A stretch of DNA of 64,000 nt, taken from NCBI GenBank assembly GCA_965140445.1, contig OZ223236.1:3650498-3714497 (forward strand), in the 5' to 3' direction. Below are positions 11,598 to 48,657 of this stretch, piece by piece. The notes below the pieces were generated by a model. That model saw nothing but the letters and a program-made list of their open reading frames with translations. It searched no databases and was not told the origin of the DNA. This DNA comes from Candidatus Ozemobacteraceae bacterium (GTDB taxonomy: Bacteria; Muiribacteriota; Ozemobacteria; Ozemobacterales; Ozemobacteraceae). The translations under genes were made by a program, and so were the position numbers. Numbering within the stretch: the stretch's first letter is position 1; the number at the start of each line of letters is the position of its first letter.

Positions 11598-11599
11598 TT

Positions 11600-14040: not shown

Positions 14041-14085
14041 ATTTTTTGGGCATTTTTCAAATCAAAAAACGCTATAAATCAATTA

Positions 14086-14640
14086 TCAGCCAGTGATAAC
14101 CTTGCTAACACCATGTGTCATCCAAAGTCTACTTGCAAAATATACATTTCTTGGACCGCGTTTTTCATCATTGATCTTTTTGATAATTTTGAGGTCTAAT
14201 GCATTAATAGTCTTTATTGATTTAACATTCTGTGGATGAGTACAAACAAGAATTCTATTTGAAGGAATTAACCTGAATGCCTCTTCAAGCTCTCTTTTAC
14301 CAACTTCAAGTGCATAGCCTTTTCCCCATGCTTCCTGGCAAAGAGCAAAAGCAATTTCATACTCATTATCGCCAATTCCAGCAAAATCGCAATGGATAAT
14401 TCCGCCGTAACCAATGGGTTTGCCTGTAGCTCTATCACAAAGAGTGCCAAGCCCTATCATTTCATCTTCTTTTGCGAAGTATTTTTCAATAAACGCTCTG
14501 CTCTCTTCTTCGTTAAGAGCTTTGCCAGTGAGTAAATACTCCATAACTTCTTTTTTGCCAAGAATTTCATTGTACATGAAATCAAAATCCTCAGCTTTGT
14601 AACTTCTAAGTAATAATCTTTCTGTTTCAAGTTTTCGCAT
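14086..14640 (-). CDS. GNAT family N-acetyltransferase (RimJ/RimL-like)
   Basis: ERLLLRSYK start region and GNAT core. The ORF track extends to 14655, but a hairpin overlaps that. The ATG giving MRKLETERLLL is the more likely start. Confidence 0.6.
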   Translation of the reverse strand: MRKLETERLLLRSYKAEDFDFMYNEILGKKEVMEYLLTGKALNEEESRAFIEKYFAKEDEMIGLGTLCDRATGKPIGYGGIIHCDFAGIGDNEYEIAFALCQEAWGKGYALEVGKRELEEAFRLIPSNRILVCTHPQNVKSIKTINALDLKIIKKINDEKRGPRNVYFASRLWMTHGVSKVITG

Positions 14641-14642
14641 AA

Positions 14643-14675
14643 AAGAAAGGAGCATCAGGGCAAAGCCCTGATGCC
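14643..14675 (-). terminator. GC-rich hairpin plus T-tract between oraE and the GNAT gene (putative intrinsic terminator/attenuator)
   Basis: On the minus strand catcagggc-ttt-gccctgatg is followed by CTCCTTTCTTTT. Confidence 0.4.
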
Positions 14676-14698
14676 TTAACCTCCATCAAAATTTCATT

Positions 14699-22327: not shown

Positions 22328-23191
22328 TTAATCAAAATCCCCATCATCATCTTCATGCGGATAATTCTTTTCCGCACACTCGGGACAAATCCCGTGACTA
22401 AATTTTGCCATAGAATGTTCCGAGATATAGTTTTCAACTCGATCCCAATAGCCTTTGTCATCCCTAATCTTTTTGCAGTGTGAGCAAATAGGAATAATAC
22501 CCTTAAGAGTTTTAATCTCCTCCATAGTATTCCTAAGCTCTTTAATTAAGTTTTCCTTTTCGGCATTAGATTCCTCTAATTCTTTAACAACCTTTTCCAC
22601 GGCTTTTGTTGAATTATTTAAGCCTTCCTGGACCATTCCCCTTGATTTCTCCATTACAAAGGAAAAAAGAAAAATAATCAAATAGGCTGAAACACTTCTA
22701 ACTCTTACATTAAAATCATATTTTGCAACAAAACTAAAATGCTTATCAAAAAAGAAAACTGTAAGCATGACCAGCAATAAACACCAGGCAATTCTGCTCC
22801 CATTTTTTTCTCCCAGAAGGAAAACCGAAATTATTGGAAAAGTGAAGGACCAAACATAACCAGAATTAGAAGATCCCCCAGAAATAAGCAAAAAACAATA
22901 CAATAAAAAGCCTACAGAAACACCCATTATAGAAAATAGCCTATAGTTTTTTGTTTTTCTAAGCAAAATCAAAAATAATAACAAAACGATTGAACAGGAA
23001 AAATCTACAAAAGCCAATTGATAATTTCCCTGATAGCTAGCAATGGGTGCCAGAATCAGAAGAGTAGCCATGGAAAATAAAAGGGTTAAATTCAACATCA
23101 GAGTCCGTCTCAAAGCTTCTATTTCATGCTTCTTTGACAAACCTGAAGAAATAAAATCCCAGAACCATTCTTTTAAAGTTTTCAGAGACAT
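22328..23191 (-). CDS. Membrane sensor (multi-TM N-terminus) - coiled coil - C-terminal Cys4 zinc-ribbon-like module (paralog A)
   Basis: Five or six predicted TM helices. C-terminus LKGIIPICSHCKKIRDDKGYWDRVENYISEHSMAKFSHGICPECAEKNYPHEDDDGDFD. Confidence 0.75.
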   Translation of the reverse strand: MSLKTLKEWFWDFISSGLSKKHEIEALRRTLMLNLTLLFSMATLLILAPIASYQGNYQLAFVDFSCSIVLLLFLILLRKTKNYRLFSIMGVSVGFLLYCFLLISGGSSNSGYVWSFTFPIISVFLLGEKNGSRIAWCLLLVMLTVFFFDKHFSFVAKYDFNVRVRSVSAYLIIFLFSFVMEKSRGMVQEGLNNSTKAVEKVVKELEESNAEKENLIKELRNTMEEIKTLKGIIPICSHCKKIRDDKGYWDRVENYISEHSMAKFSHGICPECAEKNYPHEDDDGDFD

Positions 23192-23224: not shown

Positions 23225-24079
23225 TTAATCATCATCAAAGTCCTCTTCAGAGTATAGCTCTTTAATGCAGTCTGGACAAATACCATGACTAAATTGTGCC
23301 TCAGTATGGTCGGTAATAAAATTCTCGACTCTATCCCAGAAGCCCTCATCGTTTCTTATTTTTTTACAGCACGAGCACATTGGTAAAATTCCTTGTAAGG
23401 TGCTGACCTCATTCATTAATTCCTTTAACTCATGAATGAGATTTTCCTTAACTGCTTGAGCTTTTTCAAGTTCTGTAACAGACTTTTCCATTTCGACTTT
23501 AGACTTATTCAAGTTCTTTTGAATAGAATCTCTCAATTCTTCCATCACAGCAGCAAAAAGAAAGATTAAAAAATATGCCGACAATGCTCTAATTGCAATG
23601 TTGAAATCATAACTCTCCAAATAAGGAATTTCATTTCCCGCGAAAAAAACAATACCAACAAAACTAAACAAAACAAGACTAAAAAAAGCGCCACGCTGGT
23701 TGCCAAGCAAAAAAATAGAAATCAAAGGGTAAGTAAAAATCCAAACATGTGAAGCTCCACCAACACCACCTGTACCTGATAAATAAGCAAAAAAGACACC
23801 CGTTAGCGCTACTGCAAAGGTCGAACAGAATACATAATTGTGAGTTTTCTTATGATAAAAAAATAGAAAAAGTAAAATACCTAAAGTAATTGAATCAGCA
23901 ACTACAACTCTGTAGCTACCCTGAAAGTATGATAAAAGACCTAAAACAAAAATAAAAAAGCCGCCAAGAAAAACCAGAATATTAAACATAAAGACACGTC
24001 TAAGTTCTTCAATGTTATTTTTATCCTTAAGGCCTCCCGAAAAGAGATACCAAATTATTTTTTTTGATTCATTCTTCAT
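23225..24079 (-). CDS. Membrane sensor - coiled coil - Cys4 module (paralog B, tandem duplicate of A)
   Basis: Same architecture. C-terminus LQGILPMCSCCKKIRNDEGFWDRVENFITDHTEAQFSHGICPDCIKELYSEEDFDDD. Confidence 0.75.
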   Translation of the reverse strand: MKNESKKIIWYLFSGGLKDKNNIEELRRVFMFNILVFLGGFFIFVLGLLSYFQGSYRVVVADSITLGILLFLFFYHKKTHNYVFCSTFAVALTGVFFAYLSGTGGVGGASHVWIFTYPLISIFLLGNQRGAFFSLVLFSFVGIVFFAGNEIPYLESYDFNIAIRALSAYFLIFLFAAVMEELRDSIQKNLNKSKVEMEKSVTELEKAQAVKENLIHELKELMNEVSTLQGILPMCSCCKKIRNDEGFWDRVENFITDHTEAQFSHGICPDCIKELYSEEDFDDD

Positions 24080-26231: not shown

Positions 26232-27284
26232 TTGCGTGAAATCAAAATCATAAATACAATTAAAGTCTGGAGAAAAGATTTGTTTAAGTATTTAAAAATT
26301 AAGTTTGTATTTATTATCGCACTGTTAGCGTCCTTGTCCCCCCTATATGCGGGCAAAATTTCCACGGACGAAATTAAACGACTTCAGAATGTAAACGAAA
26401 CACTTATCAACCATATTTCAATAATGGAAGAAGAGTTTGAAGCCTCACCTTCGTTAAATAAATACAAAAAAGAATATTTGTCAGCAATCCCGACTGATTC
26501 CATACTACCAGTTGCAAATACGGTTATGGCTAAAACTATTGCTGGCGCGCCGTTTGTGTTTCTTGGAGACGAACATACGACCCCTCAATCTCAAAGAAAT
26601 ACTATTTCTGTTTTGCAAATGATGAAAAAGAACCCTGCCCCTTTAACCCTGGTTATTGAGTGGATTGATATAAGTTACCAAAAAGAGATAAACAACTTTC
26701 TACAGGGAAAAATAAAAATTTCTGATTTAAGAAAATGCATATCTTTTGATAAATACTGGGGATTTTCATGGGCTAATTATTCAAAAATATTGGGTGCAGC
26801 TAAAAAATTGAAAACCCCCATTCTTTTAACTGAAAGATTGAAAAACAGCCATTCCTTATCTGATAGAGACACTTTTATTGTAAAAAAGATTTTAGAACAC
26901 AGAGAAAGTAATCCCAAAATGCGATATCTGGTTGTTTATGGCGATTACCATATTCTAGGAAAACTTCATCTGTCTGAAAAAGCTGCGAAAGCAGGTTTGA
27001 AGCCTCAATTGCTTCTTCTGGGTGGTGCTTCAAAGGTTTATTGGAAGCTTTTAAACAAAATCCAGGATCCCGACAAAACTTCCTTCGCAAAATTGTCCAG
27101 AGGGATTTTTTACATAAGGAATGGAACACCCTTAGAGAGAAATTTATCTTACCGCAACTACCTGCTTAAAATTCTTGGTTACAGTAAAGACGATTTTGAC
27201 ATTTGGGTGGACAAAAGAGACATTTTACCAATTTCTGTTTCAACTAACCGATTTGACTCATTACATTCTACACCAGCCAGATAA
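26232..27284 (+). CDS. Secreted ChaN/Tiki-like family protein (putative)
   Basis: Signal peptide. GDEHTTPQSQ resembles the GxxH motif of the ChaN/Tiki superfamily. Low certainty. Confidence 0.45.
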   Translation: MREIKIINTIKVWRKDLFKYLKIKFVFIIALLASLSPLYAGKISTDEIKRLQNVNETLINHISIMEEEFEASPSLNKYKKEYLSAIPTDSILPVANTVMAKTIAGAPFVFLGDEHTTPQSQRNTISVLQMMKKNPAPLTLVIEWIDISYQKEINNFLQGKIKISDLRKCISFDKYWGFSWANYSKILGAAKKLKTPILLTERLKNSHSLSDRDTFIVKKILEHRESNPKMRYLVVYGDYHILGKLHLSEKAAKAGLKPQLLLLGGASKVYWKLLNKIQDPDKTSFAKLSRGIFYIRNGTPLERNLSYRNYLLKILGYSKDDFDIWVDKRDILPISVSTNRFDSLHSTPAR

Positions 27285-28374: not shown

Positions 28375-29376
28375 CTAATCGTTGTCTTCCCAGTCCAGTT
28401 CTGGATAAAGCTCCTTTGCGCAATCGGGGCAAATTCCATGACTTATTTCTGCATCAGTATTATCGTAGATGTAAACTTCTAATTTACTCCAGTATCCTTT
28501 ATCGTTTCTAATTTTGTGACACTTACAACATAGAGGAAGCAGGCCGGAAAGAGTTTTAATTTTGGAATTTGCAAGCTGAAGATTTTTAATTAATTCCTCT
28601 CTTTCAATTGCATATCGTCTTTTTTCGGTTACATCAGCGTGCGTACCACACATCCTTGATGGTTTTCCCTGCTCATCATAGGAAACGACCTTTGCCCTGT
28701 CCAATATCCATTTTATAGATGAATCCTTGCAAATCATTCTATATTCAAGCTCATGGATTGGCTTCTTTCCATCCAGGTGGTCTTTAATGGAATTCCATGC
28801 TTTTGCCCTATCCTCTGGATGCACAAAATCTTCCCACTGTTTTACCGTAAACTGTATTTCTTCAAATGTATATCCTAGGATTTTAGCCCACATCTCATTT
28901 CGTTGGACTTCTCCAGTTTTCAAATTCCAGTCCCAAAAGCCAAGTTCACTAGCATCCAATACTAATCTAGTTCTTTCTTCACTATCCAGAACTTTTCTTT
29001 CGGCAATAATTCGAGGGGTAATATCAACAAAACTAACGCTGAACTGACCTTTTTTAGGAGAAAATGCGTTAACATGGAAGTGTTTATTTAGTTCCTGAGA
29101 AAAATTTTCAAACTGAATAGGTTCCCCTGTTAGGGCAACTTTTCCATATTTTTGGATCCAACTGTGCTCTGTACCAGGCATCAAATCAAGAATAGTACGA
29201 CCGATAATATCTTCCGCCTTCATACCAGTCAACTTTTCAAAAGCAGGATTAACTAGTAAGAACCTATAGTCAACGGGATTTCCTTGGTCATCACAAATAA
29301 TTTCATGATGCGCAAAACCAAACACCGCCTCCGCAAACAACAGGGCGGCTAATCCAGTGTCAACTTTAGAATCCAC
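28375..29376 (-). CDS. Cytoplasmic 2xPAS sensor - coiled coil - Cys4 module (paralog C)
   Basis: Two PAS folds. C-terminus LSGLLPLCCKCHKIRNDKGYWSKLEVYIYDNTDAEISHGICPDCAKELYPELDWEDND. Confidence 0.8.
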   Translation of the reverse strand: MDSKVDTGLAALLFAEAVFGFAHHEIICDDQGNPVDYRFLLVNPAFEKLTGMKAEDIIGRTILDLMPGTEHSWIQKYGKVALTGEPIQFENFSQELNKHFHVNAFSPKKGQFSVSFVDITPRIIAERKVLDSEERTRLVLDASELGFWDWNLKTGEVQRNEMWAKILGYTFEEIQFTVKQWEDFVHPEDRAKAWNSIKDHLDGKKPIHELEYRMICKDSSIKWILDRAKVVSYDEQGKPSRMCGTHADVTEKRRYAIEREELIKNLQLANSKIKTLSGLLPLCCKCHKIRNDKGYWSKLEVYIYDNTDAEISHGICPDCAKELYPELDWEDND

Positions 29377-32656: not shown

Positions 32657-33991
32657 TTACTCAAAATCCTTTTTAATCTTTTCAAAGCATTCTGGGCAAA
32701 TTCCATGAGAAAATTTGGCTTCAGAGTGTTTTGAAATATACTCCTCCATTTGGCTCCAGGCACCAGCATCGTTTCTGATTTTTTTACAATAAGAACAGAT
32801 GGGTAATATTCCCTGGAGCTTTTTTATCTGCTCAAAAGCCTCGCCAAGCTGAATAATTAAACCTTCTCTGCACTTTTCATTTTCTTTAATATCTGTTATG
32901 TCTGTGGCAATTTCTAAACGAACGACTCTGCCGTCTATCCATTTTATTGCCTTATCTCTACAAGCATACCATCGCTCGGTTAAAGGATTTAATAATTCCC
33001 ACTCAATAACACCATTTACTTCCCCATCATTACCTATCAATCTATCATTGGTGCAAAATTCACATGGCTTTCCACTCGTAACTCCTTGAAAATACTCATA
33101 GCATTTTCTTTTGCCTGGTTCACCAAAAGTTTTTTTGCAAAACTCATTAACTGCAATTAGCTCATAAGTTTCCATATCAGAAACATAAACAGGCATATCT
33201 ATTGAATCAATAATAATTTGATAAGCTTTTCTATCAGAATTTAAACTATCCTGAAATTGCTCATTTTGACTAATTTTACTCCCAATCCACCCTATCAACA
33301 GCATTATTAAAACAATCCCTAACACCCATACAGAAACCATTGAATCATAAAGATGGCGGACCATTTCTTTCTCATTGTTTAAAAGCTTATCAAGGGACAA
33401 TTTAATACCAACTCCACCAACCAGACTTCCAATTTTAAAGCTTTTATCTGTATGGCATCTTAAGCAATTAGCATCTGCAATAAGAGGTTTCATTGAGCAA
33501 AAGACCGTGTCGTTTCTATCACCAAAGTTAAAAAGGTATTCCTTTTCAGGATTTTCTTTCAGAATTCTAAGAGCTTCCAATTCCCAACCTATAGCTTTAT
33601 TTATTGGGTTTAAAGGGTTTAATCCAACAATTCTCCCTTTTATGCCATACATTTCGGAGTAATGTTCCATTGTCTGTTTTAAAACCTGAGCGGGACTCAT
33701 AAGAGTTAAATTCACTCCATTTTCATTGAAAATATCCCGATCTGGCAAATGAGATAGATGGGGGTTAGGCTCTCCTATTTCACTGATCTTAACGTAAACT
33801 CCTCCATGCCGGTTAACCCATGATCTGAATGCCCAATCCTTATTAGTAATAGTTTTAGCCATGTTTTTAGCCAATTCCAGCGTATGCTCGTGATAATTTT
33901 CTGCGGTAAAGTGAGCAACTAAAATCACTGAAGATATCCAAAAAACCACCACAAAAAAAGCAGCAAGCAAAAATCTATAATTTTTGGGCAT
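32657..33991 (-). CDS. TM - periplasmic DUF3365/Tll0287-like heme-c (CxxCH) sensor - TM - Cys-rich PAS-like domain - coiled coil - Cys4 module (paralog D)
   Basis: CLRCH heme-c motif at the end of the periplasmic domain. C-terminus LQGILPICSYCKKIRNDAGAWSQMEEYISKHSEAKFSHGICPECFEKIKKDFE. Confidence 0.8.
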   Translation of the reverse strand: MPKNYRFLLAAFFVVVFWISSVILVAHFTAENYHEHTLELAKNMAKTITNKDWAFRSWVNRHGGVYVKISEIGEPNPHLSHLPDRDIFNENGVNLTLMSPAQVLKQTMEHYSEMYGIKGRIVGLNPLNPINKAIGWELEALRILKENPEKEYLFNFGDRNDTVFCSMKPLIADANCLRCHTDKSFKIGSLVGGVGIKLSLDKLLNNEKEMVRHLYDSMVSVWVLGIVLIMLLIGWIGSKISQNEQFQDSLNSDRKAYQIIIDSIDMPVYVSDMETYELIAVNEFCKKTFGEPGKRKCYEYFQGVTSGKPCEFCTNDRLIGNDGEVNGVIEWELLNPLTERWYACRDKAIKWIDGRVVRLEIATDITDIKENEKCREGLIIQLGEAFEQIKKLQGILPICSYCKKIRNDAGAWSQMEEYISKHSEAKFSHGICPECFEKIKKDFE

Positions 33992-34070: not shown

Positions 34071-35471
34071 CTAAAATCCCTTCATTTCATCTAAGGAAAG
34101 CTCTTCATGCCGTTCAACCTTTATGTATGCTAACTTGATCAATTCTATTAATTGATCTCTATTTAAAAATTTGTTCAGGCTTACATCAGGTATGTTAGCG
34201 TAAATTGAAAGACGTTTTTCTGCCCTTTCTTCTGCAGATTCAAATTCGTCTAACGCCTTATTGGCTCCATCTACATCATTGTAAACAGTGGATATACACA
34301 TCTCATGATTAAGATTTTTTGCCAATTCCGTTCCTGGGTATGCGGAAACAGGAAAGAAACCAGCCTCATGCATGCCAAGCTTCGCGCACTCCACAGCAAA
34401 ATTAATGGTTTTACGCATTTCTTCAATCGTTTCATCGGGAAATCCAAGCATAAAAAAACATTTAGTCAGAATTCCGTTTTCTGCTAAAGCTTTTACGCTT
34501 CGTTTAACCTTATCAAGATTCAGGTGTTTCCTGATTTTGCTTTGCCTTTCCTGCACTCCTGTCTCTACGCCCAGAGCAACATAGTGACATCCAGTCTCTG
34601 CCAGCCTCTTAACATCATTTAATTCAAGGTGATCAGCTCGACCAATACAGCAATACAAGCGATTTAAATCAGTAATCTGATCAAAGAATTCATTTAACCA
34701 TTTTTTATCAGAGAAAAAAGAATCATCCATAAAACCGAAGTTAGAATTTGAGAATAATTCCTTATAGTGATTTAATTCTTTAATAAGCCTTTCAACACTA
34801 ACTCTGCGCATTTTGCCAGGCCAGAGAACAGGTGTTGCGCAAAAAGTACATTTAAAAGTACATCCCCTTGAGGTACTCAAGAACAGCCATCTTGGCATGC
34901 CAAGCTTTTCCTGGAATGAAAGATATTTTTCAATATCAACCAATGAGAAATCAAGAAAAGGAAGTTCATCAAGGTTTTCCAAGTGATCCCTGGCAGGATT
35001 TTCTATGACCCTGCCTTCTTCTTTGAAAGCCAGGCCTGGAATTAACTTTAGATTTTTAAACTCACTTTTTAAAAGCTCTTCTAAAGTAAGTTCTCCTTCT
35101 CCGATTACTCCAAAGTCCAATGAATCCTGTATAAGTAAATCATTGCTGGAGGTTGTCATCATTGGACCTCCACCTATAGTAAAAATACTGGAGTCCGTTT
35201 CTTTTACTTTTTGCAGAAATTCAATGGCGGTTTTAAAAGTTCCCTGATAAAACGGAACTCCAACTGCTTTTGGGCAATAAGCAAACACCTTTGCTATAGT
35301 TTCATTTAATCCAATATTTTCACTGACAACATCTATGATACTGACTTTTAAGCCTCTGGTGTTCAAATACGAAGCAAGATAAAGCAGATTCAAAGGCGGT
35401 TTTAAATCCATTCTTCCTTTTTCATGCCAATTTAAAGGCGGATTTACTAAAACTAGATCAGCAAAAGACAT
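34071..35471 (-). CDS. B12-binding domain-containing radical SAM protein
   Basis: N-terminal B12-binding-like Rossmann region. Radical SAM CTFKCTFC (Cx3Cx2C). Confidence 0.8.
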   Translation of the reverse strand: MSFADLVLVNPPLNWHEKGRMDLKPPLNLLYLASYLNTRGLKVSIIDVVSENIGLNETIAKVFAYCPKAVGVPFYQGTFKTAIEFLQKVKETDSSIFTIGGGPMMTTSSNDLLIQDSLDFGVIGEGELTLEELLKSEFKNLKLIPGLAFKEEGRVIENPARDHLENLDELPFLDFSLVDIEKYLSFQEKLGMPRWLFLSTSRGCTFKCTFCATPVLWPGKMRRVSVERLIKELNHYKELFSNSNFGFMDDSFFSDKKWLNEFFDQITDLNRLYCCIGRADHLELNDVKRLAETGCHYVALGVETGVQERQSKIRKHLNLDKVKRSVKALAENGILTKCFFMLGFPDETIEEMRKTINFAVECAKLGMHEAGFFPVSAYPGTELAKNLNHEMCISTVYNDVDGANKALDEFESAEERAEKRLSIYANIPDVSLNKFLNRDQLIELIKLAYIKVERHEELSLDEMKGF

Positions 35472-35603: not shown

Positions 35604-37298
35604 TTATCTCAGAACCTTTTTTAATGTCTGGTCTATAGATTTTGAATATTCTATAGCGCCCAGTTTAGTCCTGATACCAGCTTGCCGTAGTTTTAGTTTT
35701 ACAGAAGGTCTCGTATTATAAAAAATCAAACGAATTTTTCTGCCGGCAAGTTCTTCCACAATCGTTTCTAAAGCTACAATTGCAGTCATATCTATCATTG
35801 AGACGCTATTCATATCAAGAACAATAGCCTTCACTTTCCTGGAGTTATTTACAATGCTTTGTAAAGCTCTTTGAGCTGATCCAAAGAATAATGGGCCATT
35901 TATTTCATAAGAAATAATATCATCAGGGAAATCCAATACTTCTCGATTTTCTTTTTTTCCAAGTCGTACGATGTCGGCACCGGAGAGGGCAATAATCCTG
36001 CGAATAAATAAAAACGCTGCGAGCCCCATTCCAACGGCAACAGCAATAACCATATCAAAAACCACAGTTAATAAAAAGCAGGTTAACAACGTAATAATAT
36101 CTTCTCTTGGAGCAATCCGCGCTATACGAATAAAGTGCTTTGTTTCACTCATATTCCATGCAACCTGAATCAACAAAGCAGACATTGCCGCCATAGGAAT
36201 GTACGCAAGAAAGGGGGCAAAAAATAGTATTGCACCAACAATGAATAAAGAATGAAATACCGAAGAAAGCGGTGAAATGCCACCAGCTCTTATATTCGCT
36301 GCTGTTCTGGCAATCGCTGCAGTGGCAGGTATTCCTCCAAAAAAGGGAACAATAATGTTTCCAATTCCCTGTCCAATAAGCTCATCATTTGGGTTGTGAT
36401 TTTTCCCTGATACCCCATCAGCAACAACAGCACAAAGCAAAGATTCAATTGCACCAAGAGCAGCAATTGTTAATGCTGGTCCCATCAGGTCACTTATCAA
36501 AGCAAAACTTAATCCGATTGGATTCCCATCAGCCCCCGGTTGAGTCCATGGCAAAACAAAAGAAGGCAAAAAAGGAGGAATTCCAGCTCCAGAGAACTCT
36601 CCCAAAGAATATTGAAAACGAGTTCCAATTGTTTCTATCGAAAAGTTACCAGTAAATTTTCCAAGAGCGTATGCAATTAATGATGAAAAAGTTAGTGCAA
36701 TAAGTTGCCCTGGAATCCGACTCTTAACTTTTCGCCAATAAACCAGGATTACCAATGTGACTATGCCAATAAAGGTTGCTGACCAATTCAGATTAGGTAA
36801 ATCTTTAAAAATTTCAAACAGCTTACCAATAAAATGGTGAGATTTATGCTGTGTCGTTAAACCCAGAAAATCCTTTAATTGCAAACCGCCGATAACAGTA
36901 GCAATACCAGCTGTAAAGCCAATAGTAACAGGATAAGGAACTAATCTGATCCAATTTCCCATTTTCGTTAATCCCATAAAAATGAGAAAAATACCAGCAA
37001 GCAAAGTGCTTAGAAATAATCCTCCAATACCATATTTACTCACAATAGGAATTAGCACCACAACGAATGCTGCCGTTGGTCCTGAGATATTGACTTCTGA
37101 TCCCCCCGAAAGCGCAATTACAATCCCAGCAATTATTGCAGTGTACAAACCATGCTGTGGCGGGACATCACATGCAATCGCTAAAGCCATGGATAAAGGC
37201 AGCGCTATAATCCCTATGGTCAAGCCAGCGAGAAAATCAGACCATAGTTTTTGGGAATCTTTTATTGAAGAAATAACACTTGGAAAAGCAGAAAACAT
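35604..37298 (-). CDS. SulP family anion transporter with C-terminal STAS domain
   Basis: About 11 TM helices with SulP conserved segments. C-terminal STAS domain. 564 aa. Confidence 0.85.
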   Translation of the reverse strand: MFSAFPSVISSIKDSQKLWSDFLAGLTIGIIALPLSMALAIACDVPPQHGLYTAIIAGIVIALSGGSEVNISGPTAAFVVVLIPIVSKYGIGGLFLSTLLAGIFLIFMGLTKMGNWIRLVPYPVTIGFTAGIATVIGGLQLKDFLGLTTQHKSHHFIGKLFEIFKDLPNLNWSATFIGIVTLVILVYWRKVKSRIPGQLIALTFSSLIAYALGKFTGNFSIETIGTRFQYSLGEFSGAGIPPFLPSFVLPWTQPGADGNPIGLSFALISDLMGPALTIAALGAIESLLCAVVADGVSGKNHNPNDELIGQGIGNIIVPFFGGIPATAAIARTAANIRAGGISPLSSVFHSLFIVGAILFFAPFLAYIPMAAMSALLIQVAWNMSETKHFIRIARIAPREDIITLLTCFLLTVVFDMVIAVAVGMGLAAFLFIRRIIALSGADIVRLGKKENREVLDFPDDIISYEINGPLFFGSAQRALQSIVNNSRKVKAIVLDMNSVSMIDMTAIVALETIVEELAGRKIRLIFYNTRPSVKLKLRQAGIRTKLGAIEYSKSIDQTLKKVLR

Positions 37299-37454: not shown

Positions 37455-38870
37455 CTATTCTGGCTTAATTTTATCTTTTCTTAAAAGCTCATCAGCATGT
37501 TCAGGGTAAAATTTTTCTACACATTCAGGACAGATACTATGGGAGAAATTCAAATCAGTATTTTTCCCAAAAAAGCTTTCTATTTTTTCCCAATAACCGG
37601 TATCGGTTCTAACATTTTTGCAATGAGAACAGATTGGAAGCATTTCTTTTAGGGTTTCAACTTTTTCCGCCAACTTTGCATTGGCTTCCTGCAAATCTGC
37701 TTTATAGCTTTCGATTTTATCCATATAGCCATTAAAAGACCTTGCAAGCTCTCCAACCTCATCTTCTGAGCTGACAGATAAACGTAATGAAAAATCGTCT
37801 TTTTCACATTGAGCTATCTTTTGAATTTTTTCTGTTAAAGGCTTGGTAATAGAATAACTAACAGCAGTGGAAACAGGAATCAGAATTATCATTGTTAAAA
37901 CAATTAGTCCCAGGAAAACTAATTCAAACAACACTAATGGATGATACAATTCATCAAGATAGCATGATGAGGCAATTATCCACCCTAATTCAGGTATATC
38001 TTCGAATATAACCAACTTCTCTCTTACAGCCGGTTCACCAGGATTTTGCCATGGGTAGATTATTTTTCCAGATTTTCTTTCAGTCATTTCCCTGATAAAA
38101 TATCTTCCGGAAGAATCTTTAGAACCTGAAATGTTTTGACCTTCTAGAATAGGATGAACCAGGCAGTTTCCTGAATAATCAATCAAATAAGAGTAACCAG
38201 TATTTCTAAATTTTAGACCTAGAATTCCCTCCCGAAAATCCTCAACATCAATAATCTCTTTAAAATCTTCAACATAAAAAGAAGCTGAAATAATCCAATC
38301 CCAAGGCTCAAAATAAAGCATATAGAGGGCTTTTTTCCTTTTTTCAACCTCTCCTGGATTTTTCCACTCGTACATTAAAAACCCATTCTTCTCAAGAGTT
38401 TGTCTTTTAACAAAAGCAAAATTAGAAACATCTTGATCTACAAGCTCTTCATGTGGATGCATGCGTAAAAAGCCTTTACTATCAAGGCAATAAACATATC
38501 CATTTTTACCTATCACCTGAGTCTTGAGAATTTTATCTGCAGCTTTTCTCGCTTCTTCTTCTGTAATTTTTCCTTCTAATACCTGCTTATGCAAATCTGA
38601 AACGACTTGTAAACTAGAATTGGCAATAGATTTCAAATGATTTCTGATTGAAGACAAAATTGAGGTTTTTACTAATCTCTGCATGAGCTTTGTAGAAATT
38701 GAAAGCTCAGTCTCTACATTTTGTTCAATCTGATTTTTTAAAAGAAAATAGGTAACTGAGCTGAAAATTATTAGTATAGCTGAAAATGCAATAAAATTAG
38801 CAATTACAAGCTTTGTACGGATTTTTTGCTTATTAAAAAAACCTGACAATTCATAATCCCCTTCATACAA
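37455..38870 (-). CDS. TM - dCache_1 - TM - HAMP - coiled coil - Cys4 module (paralog E). MCP-like architecture with the MCP domain replaced.
   Basis: Cache region GYVYCLDSKG...HP. HAMP at ITKPLTEKIQKIAQ...VGELARSFNGYM. C-terminus LKEMLPICSHCKNVRTDTGYWEKIESFFGKNTDLNFSHSICPECVEKFYPEH. Confidence 0.8.
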   Translation of the reverse strand: MYEGDYELSGFFNKQKIRTKLVIANFIAFSAILIIFSSVTYFLLKNQIEQNVETELSISTKLMQRLVKTSILSSIRNHLKSIANSSLQVVSDLHKQVLEGKITEEEARKAADKILKTQVIGKNGYVYCLDSKGFLRMHPHEELVDQDVSNFAFVKRQTLEKNGFLMYEWKNPGEVEKRKKALYMLYFEPWDWIISASFYVEDFKEIIDVEDFREGILGLKFRNTGYSYLIDYSGNCLVHPILEGQNISGSKDSSGRYFIREMTERKSGKIIYPWQNPGEPAVREKLVIFEDIPELGWIIASSCYLDELYHPLVLFELVFLGLIVLTMIILIPVSTAVSYSITKPLTEKIQKIAQCEKDDFSLRLSVSSEDEVGELARSFNGYMDKIESYKADLQEANAKLAEKVETLKEMLPICSHCKNVRTDTGYWEKIESFFGKNTDLNFSHSICPECVEKFYPEHADELLRKDKIKPE

Positions 38871-43208: not shown

Positions 43209-44003
43209 TTAGATTTTTAGATAACCTCGGGATTTCAGATACTCAAAGCTTTTCTCCACATTTACAATATCTCCAACCTCAAGAACAATTAATGGATGTT
43301 CAGATAATTGGCTGGTAAAATTTACCATTTTTTTCCAATCAATGTTTCCTTCCCCCAAGGCCAACTCAAGATCTCTGTCGCCATCATTATCATTCCAATG
43401 CATGTACACAATGTCTTCTTTCATAGTATCAAACCATCGCGAAGCATCCAAAGAAGAGAATACATTCATGTGCCCAAGATCTAAACAGGATTTAACATGT
43501 TCAGAATTTGACTTTTTTATAATATCCTTTAATAAATCAGGACTATCTTCCCACATGTTTTCAAGACAGATACAGATTTCTGGATATTCTTTAGAAACGG
43601 CACTCCAAAAGTCTGCCTGATCCTCAACTGCTTTTTTAAAATAACTCTGATTACGTATCAACATATTTATGCTGCAATGGAAAACAATATGTGAACAACC
43701 TAAATTCAAAGCCATTTCGATTCCTTCTCGAATCCTATCCTGGGAAAGCTTGGCAATTTTCTTATCGGGGCTATGTAAAACTAAATCAATGAATGGTCCA
43801 TGAAAGGTTTTATAACCACTAAAATTTCTTAGTTCCTGCTGAAAAGCACTCATCTGCTCCTTTCGTTGCTCTTTTGAGTCAATCACAGAAGGCATAGCAA
43901 AGGACACAAGTTCAAAGCCACATCCATATTTTCCTGCCAGTTCATAAAATGAGTGTCTCTGACTCCAATATGGTTGTATCAAAATTTTTGAGGGATTAAT
44001 CAT
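43209..44003 (-). CDS. Sugar phosphate isomerase/epimerase (xylose-isomerase-like TIM barrel)
   Basis: 264 aa. AP-endonuclease-2/TIM-barrel pattern (ICLENM..., HxD/E metal ligands). Confidence 0.6.
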   Translation of the reverse strand: MINPSKILIQPYWSQRHSFYELAGKYGCGFELVSFAMPSVIDSKEQRKEQMSAFQQELRNFSGYKTFHGPFIDLVLHSPDKKIAKLSQDRIREGIEMALNLGCSHIVFHCSINMLIRNQSYFKKAVEDQADFWSAVSKEYPEICICLENMWEDSPDLLKDIIKKSNSEHVKSCLDLGHMNVFSSLDASRWFDTMKEDIVYMHWNDNDGDRDLELALGEGNIDWKKMVNFTSQLSEHPLIVLEVGDIVNVEKSFEYLKSRGYLKI

Positions 44004-44071: not shown

Positions 44072-44704
44072 CTATCCTTCTATTTCTAAATCACCGAACT
44101 CATTTTTCAAGCAATCAGAGCAGATTCCATGCGAAAAAACAGTTTCAGAATTCATTGTAATGTATTCTTCTAATGTAAACCAAGTGCCATCTACATTTTG
44201 AATTTTCCGACAATATGAACAAATAGACAACAATTCAGATAAATATTTAATTTTTTTCTTAGCTTCTTTCAGGTTTTTATTTGTTCTAATTAATTCTTTA
44301 GTCGTTTTTGCCAATTCATTATTTAAAACTGAAATCTGTCGGATAATACTATCAGTACGTTCCGTTTCAGGTATTCCAATCAGCAACCAATCTTTTTCCA
44401 TTTTAAAAATTTCACAATATAAAGGTATGGATAATGGATTTACAAAGTCTAAACTGATTTTCTTTTCTTCAGGAAACTGACTTATAAGTTCCTTTAGTTT
44501 ATTAACAGTTGCTGAAGTCAAAATAGTTGAGATACTATCACCTGGCTTAATATTACTTCCAGAAGTCTTTTTAAGATTTAAACTACTGGAATTAAGAATA
44601 TAATCTTCACTAAAAGAAAAAAAAGCAATTTTACTTGTGGAACTAACGTATTCAAGCACATAAGAAAAAATGGCTCCCTCATTTAATGTCACAATAAAAA
44701 CCAC
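44072..44704 (-). CDS. Small cytoplasmic protein: unknown N-terminal domain - coiled coil - Cys4 module (paralog F)
   Basis: C-terminus LSELLSICSYCRKIQNVDGTWFTLEEYITMNSETVFSHGICSDCLKNEFGDLEIEG. Overlaps the upstream B12-binding protein gene by 16 nt. Confidence 0.75.
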   Translation of the reverse strand: MVFIVTLNEGAIFSYVLEYVSSTSKIAFFSFSEDYILNSSSLNLKKTSGSNIKPGDSISTILTSATVNKLKELISQFPEEKKISLDFVNPLSIPLYCEIFKMEKDWLLIGIPETERTDSIIRQISVLNNELAKTTKELIRTNKNLKEAKKKIKYLSELLSICSYCRKIQNVDGTWFTLEEYITMNSETVFSHGICSDCLKNEFGDLEIEG

Positions 44705-45804
44705 TCTCTTGCTAGTTTTTTTGCTTCTATGACATCATTTGCAAAACCATTTGCCCCAATTCTCTCCCATAGCTTGGGATTCTCATTAAAGCTTCGTCCC
44801 CCAACCATTATTTTAGTGTCTTTTAAAGCCTCTTGATTCTTTATTTGAAAAATCATCTGCTGCACCACTGTTAGATTAAAAGGCATCGTCACAGAAACAG
44901 CCAGAATGTTTGGTTTAAATTCGTAAGATAAGTTTAAAACGTCTTGAACAGGAGTATTTGCACCAAGGTATCTAACTGTCCATCCATCGTATTCCAAAAT
45001 ATCAGCAATCATCCACGCCCCTAACTCATGAAATTCGTTAGAACATGCGGTTACAATTGCCCTCTTATTGTTTGGACATGATTTAAAATCAAGTTGAGCT
45101 AACCAGGCCATAACTCTATTAACAATTGCTGAAGTAAGATGCTCCTGAGCGACCGAGATTTCGCCTCGCTCCCAGAGACAGCCTATCTCGTACATTGCCT
45201 GTTGCAAAACATGGATATAAAATTCTTCCAAGTCAGCAATTGAATGAACACTTCCTTTTGCCAGGTTTAGACTTCCTAAGTGGTCTGCCTTTAGCAAAAA
45301 CCGCATAAGTTCATTTTTGCAACTGCTCCATCTTCCATTTGTGCATGAGCTTTGGATTAAAGGACTTCTTGCTAGATCCACAAAGTCTTCATGATGAGCA
45401 ATCATCCAATTGTAAACATCGAGAATCTCATCTTTAAGTTCTATAGGAAACAATTGCTCTACAGCCACTTTCCAAGCTTTTAACTCAATAGGAAAATACT
45501 CAAAGGAAAACCCATGGTTGGAGTATGTTTTATAAACCCATAATACAGTGCGACTCAACAATTCAAAATTATTAAGCGAAAAAACCGATGTCATAAAAGC
45601 AGCATGGTTTTTGTGGTTATCCAGCATTTTTTGCAAATGATTAGAGCCGATGAGAGAAATCACATTTTTGTTTTGCGACAAATTGCAATCTACTGATTCA
45701 ATTAGCTTTGGACAAAGTATCTCATACTCTTCGGCAGCCTTTTGGGAAACTTTTCTTATTGAGCGAGTGGTTTCTATCAAGCTTTCAATAGACAACATGG
45801 CCAT
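44689..45804 (-). CDS. Cobalamin-binding protein (helical N-terminus + B12-binding_2 four-helix bundle + B12-binding Rossmann domain). No DNA-binding or catalytic domain.
   Basis: DxHxxG-type motif SNEFHELG followed by the Rossmann-like pattern LGANTPVQDV...ILAVSV. Confidence 0.7.
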   Translation of the reverse strand: MAMLSIESLIETTRSIRKVSQKAAEEYEILCPKLIESVDCNLSQNKNVISLIGSNHLQKMLDNHKNHAAFMTSVFSLNNFELLSRTVLWVYKTYSNHGFSFEYFPIELKAWKVAVEQLFPIELKDEILDVYNWMIAHHEDFVDLARSPLIQSSCTNGRWSSCKNELMRFLLKADHLGSLNLAKGSVHSIADLEEFYIHVLQQAMYEIGCLWERGEISVAQEHLTSAIVNRVMAWLAQLDFKSCPNNKRAIVTACSNEFHELGAWMIADILEYDGWTVRYLGANTPVQDVLNLSYEFKPNILAVSVTMPFNLTVVQQMIFQIKNQEALKDTKIMVGGRSFNENPKLWERIGANGFANDVIEAKKLAREWFLL

Positions 45805-45884
45805 GCTTACTCCTCTCGGGCAATTATCTATTAAGACTTTTCTATTTATTCATTTTATGATATCAGGAATCAAAATTTATGAAA

Positions 45885-45921
45885 ACAAAAAAACGGCACA
45901 AATAATTGTGCCGTTTTTTTG
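45885..45921. terminator. Terminator hairpin downstream of ortB
   Basis: cggcacaa-ataatt-gtgccg flanked by A7 and T7. Confidence 0.55.
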
Positions 45922-45933
45922 TTTTCAGGTTGT

Positions 45934-47331
45934 TTAACCCAGAATACCATTTAGCCATTCTAACGGCATCTTGATATCTTCGGCAATAAACTTTCGATCA
46001 GCTTCTGACCATTGATCAATCGGCACATTTTTCAATGCATTTTTCACATAAGATCTGCGCAACTTTTCCATTTCTTGTCTCTGACCTTTAACCTGGGAAA
46101 GTTTTTCTGGAATAACAATACTTTTTCCATTTATTCCTTCCGTAGGGTTTCCTCGACGAACTTCAATCCCCATTTTTCTTGCAAAAGCAAGCTGGGCATT
46201 GTGGTGTTTTCCTGCGCCAGTGTATTCAGTCTCCTGAACGACAATAATTTGATCTCGATCCATTTCTCTAGCCAGCGCCACCGCTCCCGTAACACTAGTG
46301 TTTCCGGCTGGCCCGCGTTCTATTCCCTCTAGCTTTGCAAGCAATTCAGTTATGTAAAAAACTTCACCCTGATTAACTAGAATGTAATCATCCATGTATC
46401 TCAGACTTCTTGCGGCATTTCGTGGAACGTCTACTCTATCCGGCCAGGTGGCAAATGGAACGCCAAAACCTGTGTGCCCAGTGGTAAAAGATTTTTTGTT
46501 AAAATCTTTGTCTGAAGCCATATGAAGACCACTCAAGTCAACGGAGCAAGCCACAATCTTAGAGTTTGCTCCAGATTGAATTAACCCCCTCGCAGTACCT
46601 GTCAGGTTTCCCCCACCGGCATGAGTAACAACAACTGCATCAGGATCTTTTCCATACCTGGCTCGAACCTGACAAGCAATCTCCGCCCCAAGAGTTTCAA
46701 CACCTTTTATTCCAAAGGGTGTATAGAGTGAAGCATTGAAAAAACCCGTTTCTTCCAGAGTTAATAATAAACAATAAAAAAGTTCGGGCCCGACAGACAG
46801 TTTTATAACCTCTGCCCCAAATGCTTCGCACTTTCTACCCTTCTCGACGATTTCAGGTTGCCCAATTCCCATTGAATCAAAAACTTCTTGAAGAATAATG
46901 CATTTCAATTTTCTTTGAGCCGCCTGGGAGGCAACCGCTGCCCCATAGTTTCCAGAAGTGGCAGCTATGACTCCAGAGTATCCTTTTTCTTTCGCTACAA
47001 AAGCTGATATGGAGGCTCGCCTGGCTTTAAAGCTTCCAGAGGCATTTGCAGCTTCATCTTTTAAAAGGATTGTTGCACCTTTTCCTTCAGGACAACCAGC
47101 TCTAACTGCTTCAGTTAAATTGGTTAACTCAAACAAAGGAGTACTGCCAACTTTGGTTTCAGCCTGAATTTTAGCAATGTCTTCAAGCTTAAAACCAGCA
47201 TCATTCATCATTCTTTCGTAATCGAATGCCAGTGCTCCAAGCGTATAATCATCGTAATCAATCCCCATTGAGGACTTCATTATTTCATTTTTCCGAGCCA
47301 TTACAGCCTGATAGGAAGTATCTCTTTTCAT
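45934..47331 (-). CDS. ortB: 2-amino-4-ketopentanoate thiolase beta subunit (PLP-dependent, Trp-synthase-beta fold)
   Basis: PLP fold-type II lysine region ASGSFKARRA. About 465 aa. Follows small ortA and ord. Confidence 0.7.
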   Translation of the reverse strand: MKRDTSYQAVMARKNEIMKSSMGIDYDDYTLGALAFDYERMMNDAGFKLEDIAKIQAETKVGSTPLFELTNLTEAVRAGCPEGKGATILLKDEAANASGSFKARRASISAFVAKEKGYSGVIAATSGNYGAAVASQAAQRKLKCIILQEVFDSMGIGQPEIVEKGRKCEAFGAEVIKLSVGPELFYCLLLTLEETGFFNASLYTPFGIKGVETLGAEIACQVRARYGKDPDAVVVTHAGGGNLTGTARGLIQSGANSKIVACSVDLSGLHMASDKDFNKKSFTTGHTGFGVPFATWPDRVDVPRNAARSLRYMDDYILVNQGEVFYITELLAKLEGIERGPAGNTSVTGAVALAREMDRDQIIVVQETEYTGAGKHHNAQLAFARKMGIEVRRGNPTEGINGKSIVIPEKLSQVKGQRQEMEKLRRSYVKNALKNVPIDQWSEADRKFIAEDIKMPLEWLNGILG

Positions 47332-47615
47332 ACTTGTCCTCCCAAACCAATATTTAAAAGCTCTTCAACTGTTTCACCAAAATCATGGCGATAACATGGC
47401 GAAATAATTTTTAATTCACCCTCAACGGTTCTTCCAATTAGGGTTTTTATAGCTACAATATCTCCAATTTTTGAGTCTGACTGCAAAAAGCCAGACATTT
47501 TCATTATGTATGGGGTGCACCTGGTATCTTCTGGAACTTGCGGAGCCCTCTGATCTGGTGTCAAAATAATTTTCTCAATTTCGACCCAAGTGCCAGCTTT
47601 CACACTTTCAGACAT
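47328..47615 (-). CDS. ortA: 2-amino-4-ketopentanoate thiolase alpha subunit
   Basis: 95-aa ORF overlapping ortB by 4 nt, located between ord and ortB as in known ornithine clusters. Confidence 0.6.
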   Translation of the reverse strand: MSESVKAGTWVEIEKIILTPDQRAPQVPEDTRCTPYIMKMSGFLQSDSKIGDIVAIKTLIGRTVEGELKIISPCYRHDFGETVEELLNIGLGGQV

Positions 47616-47616
47616 C

Positions 47617-48657
47617 TTAGAAGCCTCTTTCGTATGCCGATTTTCCCATAAGACATGCAGGAATAGGAAGATCTGACATCCTCTTTAAACCAGGTGAAGC
47701 TTTTAAAACTATTGGAATCATATTTACAGCCGCTGCCATAGTGCCTTTACCGCCAGGGATTTCAGGGCTAATGCTCATATTTATTTCTGGATCACCAATA
47801 ATTTTTATATAGTCACCAGTTTCAACATTTTCTGTTCCTGGATGAATTTGCTGTGGATGAATCAATTTAATAACCTCTTCACCTTTTCTATAGCCAATTC
47901 CAATGTGTCTACAGCCAGCAACCATACCAGGCTTAACTTTTACAACTGGCGTTTCTCTTTCAGTGTTTGAAATAATAGGCTCACGAGTTTCTTCAATATT
48001 ATCAACTTCTAATCCAATTGCATCTGAAATCATTTTTATTGATTCAGGGAAGCCAATATGCCCAACGATTGAACCATCTTTTAAACCTGCTTCAAACTCC
48101 TCAGGTGTAGATCCTACGCCCTGTGTTTCCATAACCGTTTTTCCAAAAGGAGAAAGGTCATTGATTCTGCTAGCTTCAATTCTCTTTACATTTAAACATG
48201 CACCAGAAAGATTAATAATAAGCTGATCAAGGACAAAACCAGGATTAACACCAGTTCCAAGAAGTGTTACACCATTTTTTACAGCAAGCTCATTAAGTTG
48301 TCTTGCTAATTCAGGCTCTTGCGCTTGCGGGCATGCCATTTCCTCTGCAATAGTAATTACATTAATTCCTTTTTCCAAAACAGTCTTCAGACTGTCAAAA
48401 ACATTTTTAGTAAAAGAGTGAATAGCGTGAAGACAAACATCTACTTTATCTTTATCAAGAATTTCATCAGGGGAGGCATAAATCTTTACGCCAACATTTT
48501 TCCCTAAATTAAGAACTTCACCGACGTCTTTTCCAACGATTTCCTCACGTCTTTCAATAACACCAACAACTTCAATTCCTTCTTTTTCAAGCATGAGTTT
48601 TACCATGCCGCTTCCCATTGCTCCGAAGCCCCATTGAACGACTCTGATTGGTTTCAT
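47617..48657 (-). CDS. ord: 2,4-diaminopentanoate dehydrogenase (DapB-like NAD(P) oxidoreductase)
   Basis: N-terminal Rossmann VVQWGFGAMG. About 346 aa. Synteny with ortAB. Confidence 0.7.
   Translation of the reverse strand: MKPIRVVQWGFGAMGSGMVKLMLEKEGIEVVGVIERREEIVGKDVGEVLNLGKNVGVKIYASPDEILDKDKVDVCLHAIHSFTKNVFDSLKTVLEKGINVITIAEEMACPQAQEPELARQLNELAVKNGVTLLGTGVNPGFVLDQLIINLSGACLNVKRIEASRINDLSPFGKTVMETQGVGSTPEEFEAGLKDGSIVGHIGFPESIKMISDAIGLEVDNIEETREPIISNTERETPVVKVKPGMVAGCRHIGIGYRKGEEVIKLIHPQQIHPGTENVETGDYIKIIGDPEINMSISPEIPGGKGTMAAAVNMIPIVLKASPGLKRMSDLPIPACLMGKSAYERGF

Follow-up and report, generated by a model that had tools for sequence, protein, structure and literature searches.

Two overlapping genes were analysed on the minus strand of a 64,000-nucleotide (nt) stretch of a Candidatus Ozemobacteraceae genome (contig OZ223236.1); the whole stretch is referred to as the window. 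The upstream gene encodes a 371-residue cobalamin-binding protein, here called the sensor, and the downstream gene a small protein, F, which ends in a module of four cysteines and one histidine (the Cys4 module). The two genes quite probably form a split sensor-effector cassette, in which a B12 sensor of the CarH/photocobilin type acts on F. Comparative genomics supports this partner-switch reading. The original prediction, made from the sequence of the window, had proposed the B12-binding protein as the input partner of F, a proposal that is supported by the conserved gene order and the start/stop overlap as well as by a domain specific to the partners and by co-inheritance. The domains, motifs and fold, the conserved pairing, the interchangeable outputs and the co-inheritance are established here. 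Both open reading frames (ORFs) lie where they had been predicted, as confirmed by the ORF list, and the pair comprises the following features:

44689–45804, minus strand: sensor gene, ORF of 371 amino acids (aa), with globin-fold, B12-binding_2 plus B12-binding domains
45355–45804 (about residues 1–150), minus strand: N-terminal globin-fold domain of the sensor, from AlphaFold2 and Foldseek; candidate second ligand pocket or docking surface
45100–45306, minus strand: B12-binding_2 four-helix bundle (PF02607, E 8e-13), with G208-x-x-W211 and E221-H222 (W-x9-EH adenosyl-pocket motif)
44752–45063, minus strand: B12-binding Rossmann domain (PF02310, E 3e-16), with E257-x-H259-x-x-G262 (lower axial His) and G281-x-x-x-P285
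44072–44704, minus strand: effector gene F, ORF of 210 aa from the GTG at 44704 or 206 aa from the GTG at 44692
44366–44665 (about residues 14–113 of the 210-aa form), minus strand: PAS-like partner domain of F, from the partner profile
44240–44365, minus strand: signalling helix or coiled-coil linker, ISVLNNELAKTTKELIRTNKNLKEAKKKIKYL, from the alignment; family consensus LNNELANxxRELxRKNxELExA
44105–44239 (motif 44111–44221), minus strand: Cys4(+His) module of F, CSYC...W...E...SHGICSDC; putative zinc-binding output domain

Conservation of the sensor-partner pair

The pairing was assessed in one genome per species, which yielded 80 loci with a member of the sensor family; 77 of these were assessable and three end at a contig end. 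A profile hidden Markov model (HMM) was built from the region that precedes the Cys4 module. In a six-frame search, the partner domain (about 150 residues, the PAS-like part plus the helix) was found in 75 of the 80 loci, and three of the five negatives were contig ends. The partner is encoded by the immediately downstream gene, on the same strand, in 72 of the 77 assessable loci, and in one locus (L082) it is divergently transcribed. This pairing is far above chance.

The partners share the N-terminal region and differ in their output: a Cys4 module in 33 proteins (and in two more that are truncated), GGDEF in about 27 (Pfam E-values of 1e-43 to 1e-50), HisKA/HATPase in about nine, and SpoIIE in one; one further protein is a MEDS-PAS-like-GGDEF fusion. 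The latter (L030:7098-8828, from a metagenome-assembled genome (MAG) of a Syntrophobacteraceae species) carries the additional MEDS domain N-terminally (Pfam E 2e-25), ahead of the PAS-like and GGDEF parts; fusions of MEDS to light-responsive B12 domains are on record (PMC11796333). Among 73 pairs, 60 offer a candidate start codon of the partner that overlaps the sensor gene's end, 29 of them as NTGA and eight with a 1-nt overlap. For 59 of 64 sensors, the partner of the nearest sensor relative ends in the same type of output, where chance alone would give 40%. Since sensor similarity tracks the output type of the partner and start/stop overlap is common, the two genes are inherited and diversified as one unit. 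The pairing was confirmed independently on two metagenome contigs that were reached via F: the two closest full-length F relatives (45% identity) each have a sensor homolog (44–50% identical) directly upstream, with a start/stop overlap. A conserved third gene of the cassette was not found in the loci; clustering of the neighbours yielded nothing but a mixed set of REC, PAS and kinase proteins, spread over 29 loci.

The sensor gene and F are coupled in the window whichever start codon of F holds. From the first GTG (44704), F would have 210 aa and its gene would overlap the end of the sensor gene (stop at 44689–44691) by 16 nt, as originally predicted. From the second in-frame GTG (44692), which forms GTGA with the TGA stop of the sensor gene, the overlap would be 4 nt and the product 206 aa. 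The shorter overlap is more likely, because the copy of F in a public protein collection (P0121; 206 aa) uses the second start and because the spacing to the Shine-Dalgarno-like run AAGAGAG is better: this run lies 11 nt before the second GTG and abuts the first. The predicted 16 nt thus stand for the first GTG and probably have to be replaced by 4 nt.

Domain organisation and B12-binding half of the sensor

Pfam matched the sensor at residues 167–235 (B12-binding_2) and 248–351 (B12-binding), both above the gathering scores, and nothing else; neither a DNA-binding nor a catalytic domain was detected. These results bear out the two domains that had been predicted as well as the absence of DNA-binding and catalytic domains. 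The AlphaFold2 model of the full-length protein (mean predicted local distance difference test score (pLDDT) of 93.8, predicted template modelling score of 0.88) has a secondary structure that agrees with both B12 domains. The N-terminus is helical in the model, as had been noted before, and the helices make up a globin-fold domain, so that the protein is not a bare B12 module. Judged from the model, the sensor joins a globin fold to a B12 module of the CarH type. The family comprises 653 full-length relatives of about 370 aa, of which the best 120 are 40–49% identical over 88–99% of the query (mostly at least 95%). They are mostly from Desulfobacterota, with others from Spirochaetales, Nitrospirota, Syntrophomonadaceae, Synergistota and further groups.

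The residues that characterise photoreceptor-type B12 domains are an adenosyl-capping Trp, a Glu-His pair and a lower-ligand His in an E/D-x-H motif (PMC10979010, PMC11796333). In the sensor family, G208, W211, E221, H222, E257, H259, G262 and G281 are kept in 71 of 71 aligned relatives and P285 in 68 of 71. The Trp cap and the Glu-His pair (W-x9/10-EH; GxxW and EH of the SignatureFinder signature) are thus present. The string SNEFHELG, singled out beforehand as a DxHxxG-like motif, corresponds to residues 255–262 and includes the invariant ligand His, H259. As cofactor, adenosylcobalamin (AdoCbl) is likely.

The best NCBIfam match of the sensor was the CarH C-terminal module with 76 bits (cut-off 400; model positions 82–266 only), followed by the corrinoid protein models MtgC with 55.8 bits (cut-off 370), MtbC with 46.8 bits (cut-off 350) and pyl_corrinoid with 40.8 bits (cut-off 215); all of these matches, CarH included, are below the models' own cut-offs. 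The CarH match and the invariance of the key residues agree with the CarH/LitR cofactor module of the original prediction. When the profile of the sensor family was compared with the sequences of the Protein Data Bank (PDB), the photocobilins ranked first:

8J2X and 8J2W, photocobilins: 124 bits
8J2Y, photocobilin: 95 bits
8JBS, cobalamin-binding domain of CtMerR: 87 bits
1Y80 and 4JGI, predicted cobalamin-binding proteins of unnamed function: 70 and 68 bits
7XCN, trimethylamine corrinoid protein: 55 bits
TtCarH: about 53 bits
3EZX, MtmC: 43 bits
7TE2, AerR: 34.7 bits

In Foldseek searches, the C-terminal two thirds of the sensor superposed on the cobalamin-binding domains of CtMerR, CarH, LitR and photocobilin, which were the top matches.

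The N-terminal globin-fold domain

The N-terminal 150 residues of the sensor have no match in Pfam. Modelled alone, residues 1–158 gave a pLDDT of 93.6 and seven to eight helices, and the top Foldseek matches in the PDB were solely globins: the sensor globins 8h17 and 4zvb, allophycocyanins and the biliverdin-binding smURFP. The template modelling scores of these matches were 0.56–0.65, at E-values of only 0.02–0.4. The photocobilin globin domains were absent from the top 50 structural matches. The near-invariant residues of the domain are N63, H64, H67, W89, Y91, Y94, Y103, F104, Y131, W133 and H138, a set that suggests a ligand pocket or a conserved interface.

A HMMER scan of 1.84 billion cluster representatives with a profile of the domain retrieved 605 proteins, 470 of them with E-values below 1e-10. 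Among the 150 that were listed, the domain is located near the N-terminus in all except one 529-aa protein, and most have about 370 aa; the shorter ones are presumably fragments. No HMMER link from these 605 representatives to other globins was found, the profile matched none of the PDB sequences, and an hhalign comparison with one allophycocyanin sequence was not significant (probability 0.9%). By sequence, then, the sensor globin makes up a separate, compact clade. Photoglobins are reported to carry a CXQD motif (PMC10151467); the sensor family lacks it and has [V/M]-M-Y-D-N-H in its place, the Asp position being acidic in 76% of the members. As the domain forms a separate clade and does not have the reported motif, the sensor was not filed as a proven member of the photoglobins or photocobilins.

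Protein F and the Cys4 module

F has no match in Pfam or NCBIfam. With a profile built from 71 partner proteins, F itself left out, it scored 72.6 bits (23.6 bits for the PAS-like part alone). None of the window's five further proteins with a Cys4 module matched this profile; because F does, it appears to be the specific cognate of the sensor rather than just one more Cys4 paralog. The 'domain of unknown function' that had been predicted at the N-terminus of F is indeed a separate domain, which can now be resolved into a PAS-like domain and a signalling helix that are specific to the sensor partners. The label PAS-like is likely to be right: Pfam PAS_9 or PAS_8 gave weak matches in 13 of 30 homologous partner domains (best E 4e-5), and the GGDEF- and SpoIIE-type partners gave sub-threshold PAS matches. 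The signalling helix is common to the partners that end in Cys4, GGDEF, HisKA and SpoIIE.

The C-terminal motif of F reads C-x2-C-x27-H-G-x-C-x2-C. In a six-frame scan of the window, the module was found at the C-terminus of six ORFs, of which F is the shortest, as had been stated in the original prediction. The five other ORFs, all on the minus strand, are:

22328–23191, minus strand: Cys4-module ORF
23225–24079, minus strand: Cys4-module ORF
28375–29376, minus strand: Cys4-module ORF
32657–33991, minus strand: Cys4-module ORF
37455–38870, minus strand: Cys4-module ORF

The sensor regions that precede the module in these five are MASE6 (in two adjacent genes), a double PAS, a Tll0287-like domain and dCache plus HAMP; overall, the module was found downstream of PAS, REC, Cache, MASE, hemerythrin and protoglobin sensors. 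With six copies in 64 kb, it is a major signalling output of the organism. In 27 aligned modules, C13, C16, W26, E30, H43, C46 and C49 are invariant. Four invariant Cys and one invariant His within 45 residues suggest that the module binds zinc, with an Fe-S cluster as the alternative. Other partners have a GGDEF, kinase or phosphatase domain in place of the module, behind the shared helix, and this interchangeability speaks for a role as output domain. A profile search for the module gave more than 2000 database proteins; the 120 that were listed are short and have no informative names and no Pfam domain over the module. No homolog was detected among the PDB sequences. Literature searches with sequence strings, MASE6/MASE11 and zinc ribbon output domain returned nothing relevant on the module, and the family accession numbers were not found in any paper.

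Comparison with known systems

The combination of a globin with a B12-binding domain has been described computationally as photoglobin-B12, in either domain order (PMC8717448), and photocobilins were shown experimentally to bind both AdoCbl and biliverdin (PMC10979010). Stand-alone photocobilins altered diguanylate cyclase activity in trans, in a light- and concentration-dependent manner; a non-cognate or truncated cyclase was used for this demonstration, and the function of the stand-alone forms was called less clear (PMC10979010). The photocobilins SasPcob and AbDPcob (8J2W, 8J2X and 8J2Y) share with the sensor the globin fold and the CarH-type B12 module, with W-x-EH and ExH kept, and they are its best matches by sequence among solved structures (124 and 95 bits, see above). 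Like the sensor, the stand-alone forms are located near signalling genes, and they have been proposed to act on effectors by protein-protein contact. However, the globin is C-terminal in the solved photocobilins and N-terminal in the sensor, which also differs from photoglobins and photocobilins in that its globin is without CXQD, belongs to a separate clade and has no bilin-synthesis genes nearby. In the photoglobin and photocobilin papers, we found no description of a dedicated PAS-like partner gene or of a Cys4 output.

CarH and LitR (TtCarH, PDB 5C8D), repressors of the MerR family that use AdoCbl as photoreceptor cofactor, have the same B12 module with Trp cap, Glu-His pair and lower-ligand His. 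They carry a MerR helix-turn-helix and bind DNA themselves, whereas the sensor has no such domain in Pfam, starts with a globin fold and is accompanied by a separate output protein; in addition, the position of CarH His132 is occupied by Glu. Functionally, the nearest analogue of a B12 partner switch is AerR/CrtJ. AerR (PpaA; PDB 7TE2) is a stand-alone B12-binding antirepressor that controls the PAS protein CrtJ (PpsR) by binding to it (PMC9144470). AerR is only weakly similar to the sensor in sequence (34.7 bits) and has no globin, its partner is a DNA-binding repressor, and the gene of that partner is not translationally coupled. The corrinoid proteins MtaC, MtbC, MtmC and MtgC have the same two Pfam domains and a B12 half of similar size, and lend their label to some members of the family; they differ from the sensor with respect to the photoreceptor-type motifs, the globin, the signalling partner and the methyltransferase neighbours. 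By analogy, the sensor would work like a stand-alone photocobilin or AerR. Lacking a DNA-binding domain, it is not a CarH or LitR protein, nor is it a methyl-transfer corrinoid protein. The general association of globin-B12 sensors with signalling genes has been published already. We found no published description of a tightly coupled two-gene cassette, of a PAS-like receiver with interchangeable outputs or of the Cys4 module.

Proposed mechanism

In the proposed mechanism, the globin domain would pack onto the four-helix bundle and the Rossmann B12 domain, and the sensor would hold AdoCbl in the base-off/His-on state via H259, with the adenosyl group beneath W211 and E221-H222. F would be translated in step with the sensor gene. 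The stimulus would most likely be illumination (near-UV to green), upon which the Co-C bond is cleaved and the upper adenosyl ligand lost, as in CarH and the photocobilins; occupancy by AdoCbl in the dark is the main alternative. The globin/B12 hub would then alter its conformation or oligomeric state, and thereby its contact with the PAS-like domain of F, which would serve as docking or receiver site. From there the signal could pass through the coiled-coil signalling helix to paired Cys4(+His) modules at the C-terminus, which probably bind zinc, and on to a putative target.

Several observations weigh against this mechanism. That the sensor binds the cofactor, responds to light and touches F, that the Cys4 module binds metal and that it acts on a downstream target are steps that we infer. 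GxxH, one of the four elements of the 'light-responsive cobalamin-binding domain' signature (PMC11796333), is absent from the sensor, which has S-N-E-F-H at that place ([P/S]-N-E-[F/Y]-H across the family, the consensus being P-N-E-[F/Y]-H, with N256 in 65 of 71). The residue beside the Trp that corresponds to His132 of CarH is E212, and the light-state chemistry may therefore differ. Neither heme oxygenase nor bilin reductase recurs beside the pair in the 80 loci, which leaves a bilin in the globin domain without genomic support. The PAS-like domain of F has no Pfam match and deviates from the family consensus at several conserved positions, and three assessable loci (L008, L010 and L027) have no partner. 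Many family members are from MAGs of strict anaerobes, and some record titles name groundwater or sediment, so light sensing is not an obvious need. The nearest relatives of the sensor are from Desulfamplus, a genus with multicellular magnetotactic members that are reported to be light-responsive, which would fit a photoreceptor role.

It is also possible, though we regard it as tentative, that the pair is the type example of a widespread split one-component architecture, consisting of a distinct globin-B12 clade, a dedicated PAS-like receiver and interchangeable outputs, with Cys4 as a new zinc-binding output and a chemistry of its own at the globin histidines. The Cys4 module would then be among the main signalling outputs of many anaerobes and act directly on gene expression or another cellular machine, and H64, H67 and H138 of the globin domain might serve as upper ligand of the cobalt once photolysis has occurred, or else hold a second tetrapyrrole. 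If true, this would amount to a sensing chemistry unlike that of CarH and the solved photocobilins.

The cassette offers likely native, genetically coupled partners for the whole sensor clade (about 600 sequence clusters) and, more generally, for stand-alone photoreceptors of the photocobilin class without an established native target. Partners with easily assayed outputs, such as GGDEF and histidine kinase, make a mechanism based on protein contact directly testable. The abundant Cys4(+His) module, for which no Pfam family, solved structure or literature was found, gains a defined input. CarH-type sensors in strict anaerobes, some of them from groundwater or sediment, raise the question of light versus corrinoid status.

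Genomic context and alternative explanations

The pair is flanked in the window by the features below, which include two parts of a pathway for oxidative ornithine degradation, 30 kb apart, and further genes related to B12:

45934–48657, minus strand: ord-ortA-ortB, ornithine degradation, part 2
45880–45927, minus strand: 48-nt palindromic hairpin, TGAAAACAAAAAAACGGCACAA...TTGTGCCGTTTTTTTGTTTTCA, with a 20-pair stem, a GC-rich core and T-runs on both sides
45885–45857, minus strand: promoter-like hexamers TTTTCA-17-TATCAT with TG, upstream of the sensor ATG
45817–45810, minus strand: Shine-Dalgarno sequence GAGAGGAG, upstream of the sensor ATG
43209–44003, minus strand: TIM-barrel gene after F, xylose-isomerase-like (Pfam AP_endonuc_2, E 4e-21; best NCBIfam match CbiR, a cobamide-remodelling phosphodiesterase, with 50.8 bits, below the cut-off of 105)
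34071–35471, minus strand: B12-binding radical SAM protein, between the Cys4-module sensor at 32657–33991 and a SulP/STAS transporter at 35604–37298
10473–16900, minus strand: oxidative ornithine degradation, part 1, with oraE, a GNAT gene, a MutL-like reactivase and two racemase-type genes
14699–16900, minus strand: oraE, D-ornithine 4,5-aminomutase, B12-dependent
12706–14040, minus strand: MutL-like reactivase
26232–27284, plus strand: ChaN/Tiki-type 'haem-binding uptake' protein (PF04187, E 1e-17)

The hairpin after ortB looks like a bidirectional intrinsic terminator; 1.9 such sites are expected in shuffled sequences. Because this hairpin separates ortB from the sensor gene and is followed by promoter-like hexamers and a Shine-Dalgarno sequence, the pair is probably outside the ord-ortA-ortB operon and forms a transcription unit of its own. 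The promoter-like sites are consensus matches only, of which 12 were present in the region and 10.7 are expected in shuffles. The gap between F and the TIM-barrel gene is 68 nt and contains no terminator-like site, and the CbiR-like gene may thus be the third gene of the unit. It is specific to the window and was not found beside the pair in the loci of other species. An enzyme of corrinoid remodelling would be a suggestive neighbour for a sensor that is itself corrinoid-based. The listed window ORFs of at least 150 aa include no oraS; a search for a small oraS was not made. The B12-binding radical SAM protein is a further user of cobalamin in the window.

The most serious rival to a light-operated switch uses the same cassette with a dark signal: the availability of AdoCbl or corrinoids, or the redox state of cobalt, would be relayed to F and tune B12-dependent metabolism or behaviour. 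We consider this unlikely, without discounting it. It would suit carriers that are mostly anaerobes, with groundwater or sediment in some MAG titles, and a window that, among the loci, is most closely related to a Candidatus Ozemobacter MAG and that encodes OraE (14699–16900), the MutL-like reactivase and the B12-binding radical SAM protein. For AbDPcob, binding of AdoCbl was by itself enough to bring cyclase activity below the level of the apo protein (PMC10979010). A cobamide-remodelling candidate, the CbiR-like gene, directly follows F, but is not kept beside the pair elsewhere. Moreover, light-responsive cobalamin-binding domains are defined by the very residues that are invariant here (W-x9-EH and ExH), and every one of the closest solved relatives is a photoreceptor. 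Bacterial control by B12 status is classically exerted by riboswitches; neither a Cobalamin riboswitch nor any other Rfam RNA was found in the window, which says little either way.

Two further explanations were considered. A dedicated regulator of the ornithine genes (ord-ortA-ortB and OraE), coupling the pathway to the supply of B12, is improbable. The ord-ortA-ortB genes are directly upstream on the same strand, OraE depends on B12, and the order ord-ortA-ortB-sensor-partner recurs in the Candidatus Ozemobacter sp. MAG (locus L040); this locus is syntenic with the window and hence not independent evidence. In the remaining 79 species loci, ord, ortA and ortB are all absent from the neighbourhood of the pair, and given this lack of conservation beyond one relative and the long terminator-like hairpin between ortB and the sensor gene, the idea was rejected. 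An ordinary corrinoid methyl carrier of the MtaC/MtbC/MtgC kind, with F adjacent by coincidence, is more improbable still and already largely refuted. Some relatives of the sensor are labelled 'methanogenic corrinoid protein MtbC1' by JGI, and the weak NCBIfam matches to MtgC, MtbC and pyl_corrinoid (41–56 bits) point the same way. These scores are, however, far below the cut-offs (215–370 bits) and below the CarH score of 76 bits, photoreceptors typically have W-x9-EH in their cobalamin-binding domains (PMC10979010), and the conserved neighbour is a signalling protein. The original prediction had named a methyltransferase corrinoid protein with a cognate MtxA or MtxB nearby as the finding that would speak against it. 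No corrinoid-dependent methyltransferase (MtaA, MtaB or MttB type) was found among the window ORFs of at least 150 aa, and no methyltransferase recurs in the 80 loci. The methyltransferase corrinoid protein was rejected on these two grounds, the sub-cut-off scores and the lack of methyltransferases.

The synteny between L040 and the window spans about 5.6 kb (44.1–49.7 kb of the window) and comprises, in this order, a small membrane protein, a lipoprotein, ord, ortA, ortB, the sensor and a Cys4 partner. The enzymes Ord and OrtB are 85–87% identical between the two, the sensor and the partner about 41–45%. The signalling pair either changes much faster than its metabolic neighbours or was replaced. 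A relative of the ChaN/Tiki-type protein is encoded downstream of the pair in L040 (tblastx), and may bear on the supply of tetrapyrrole.

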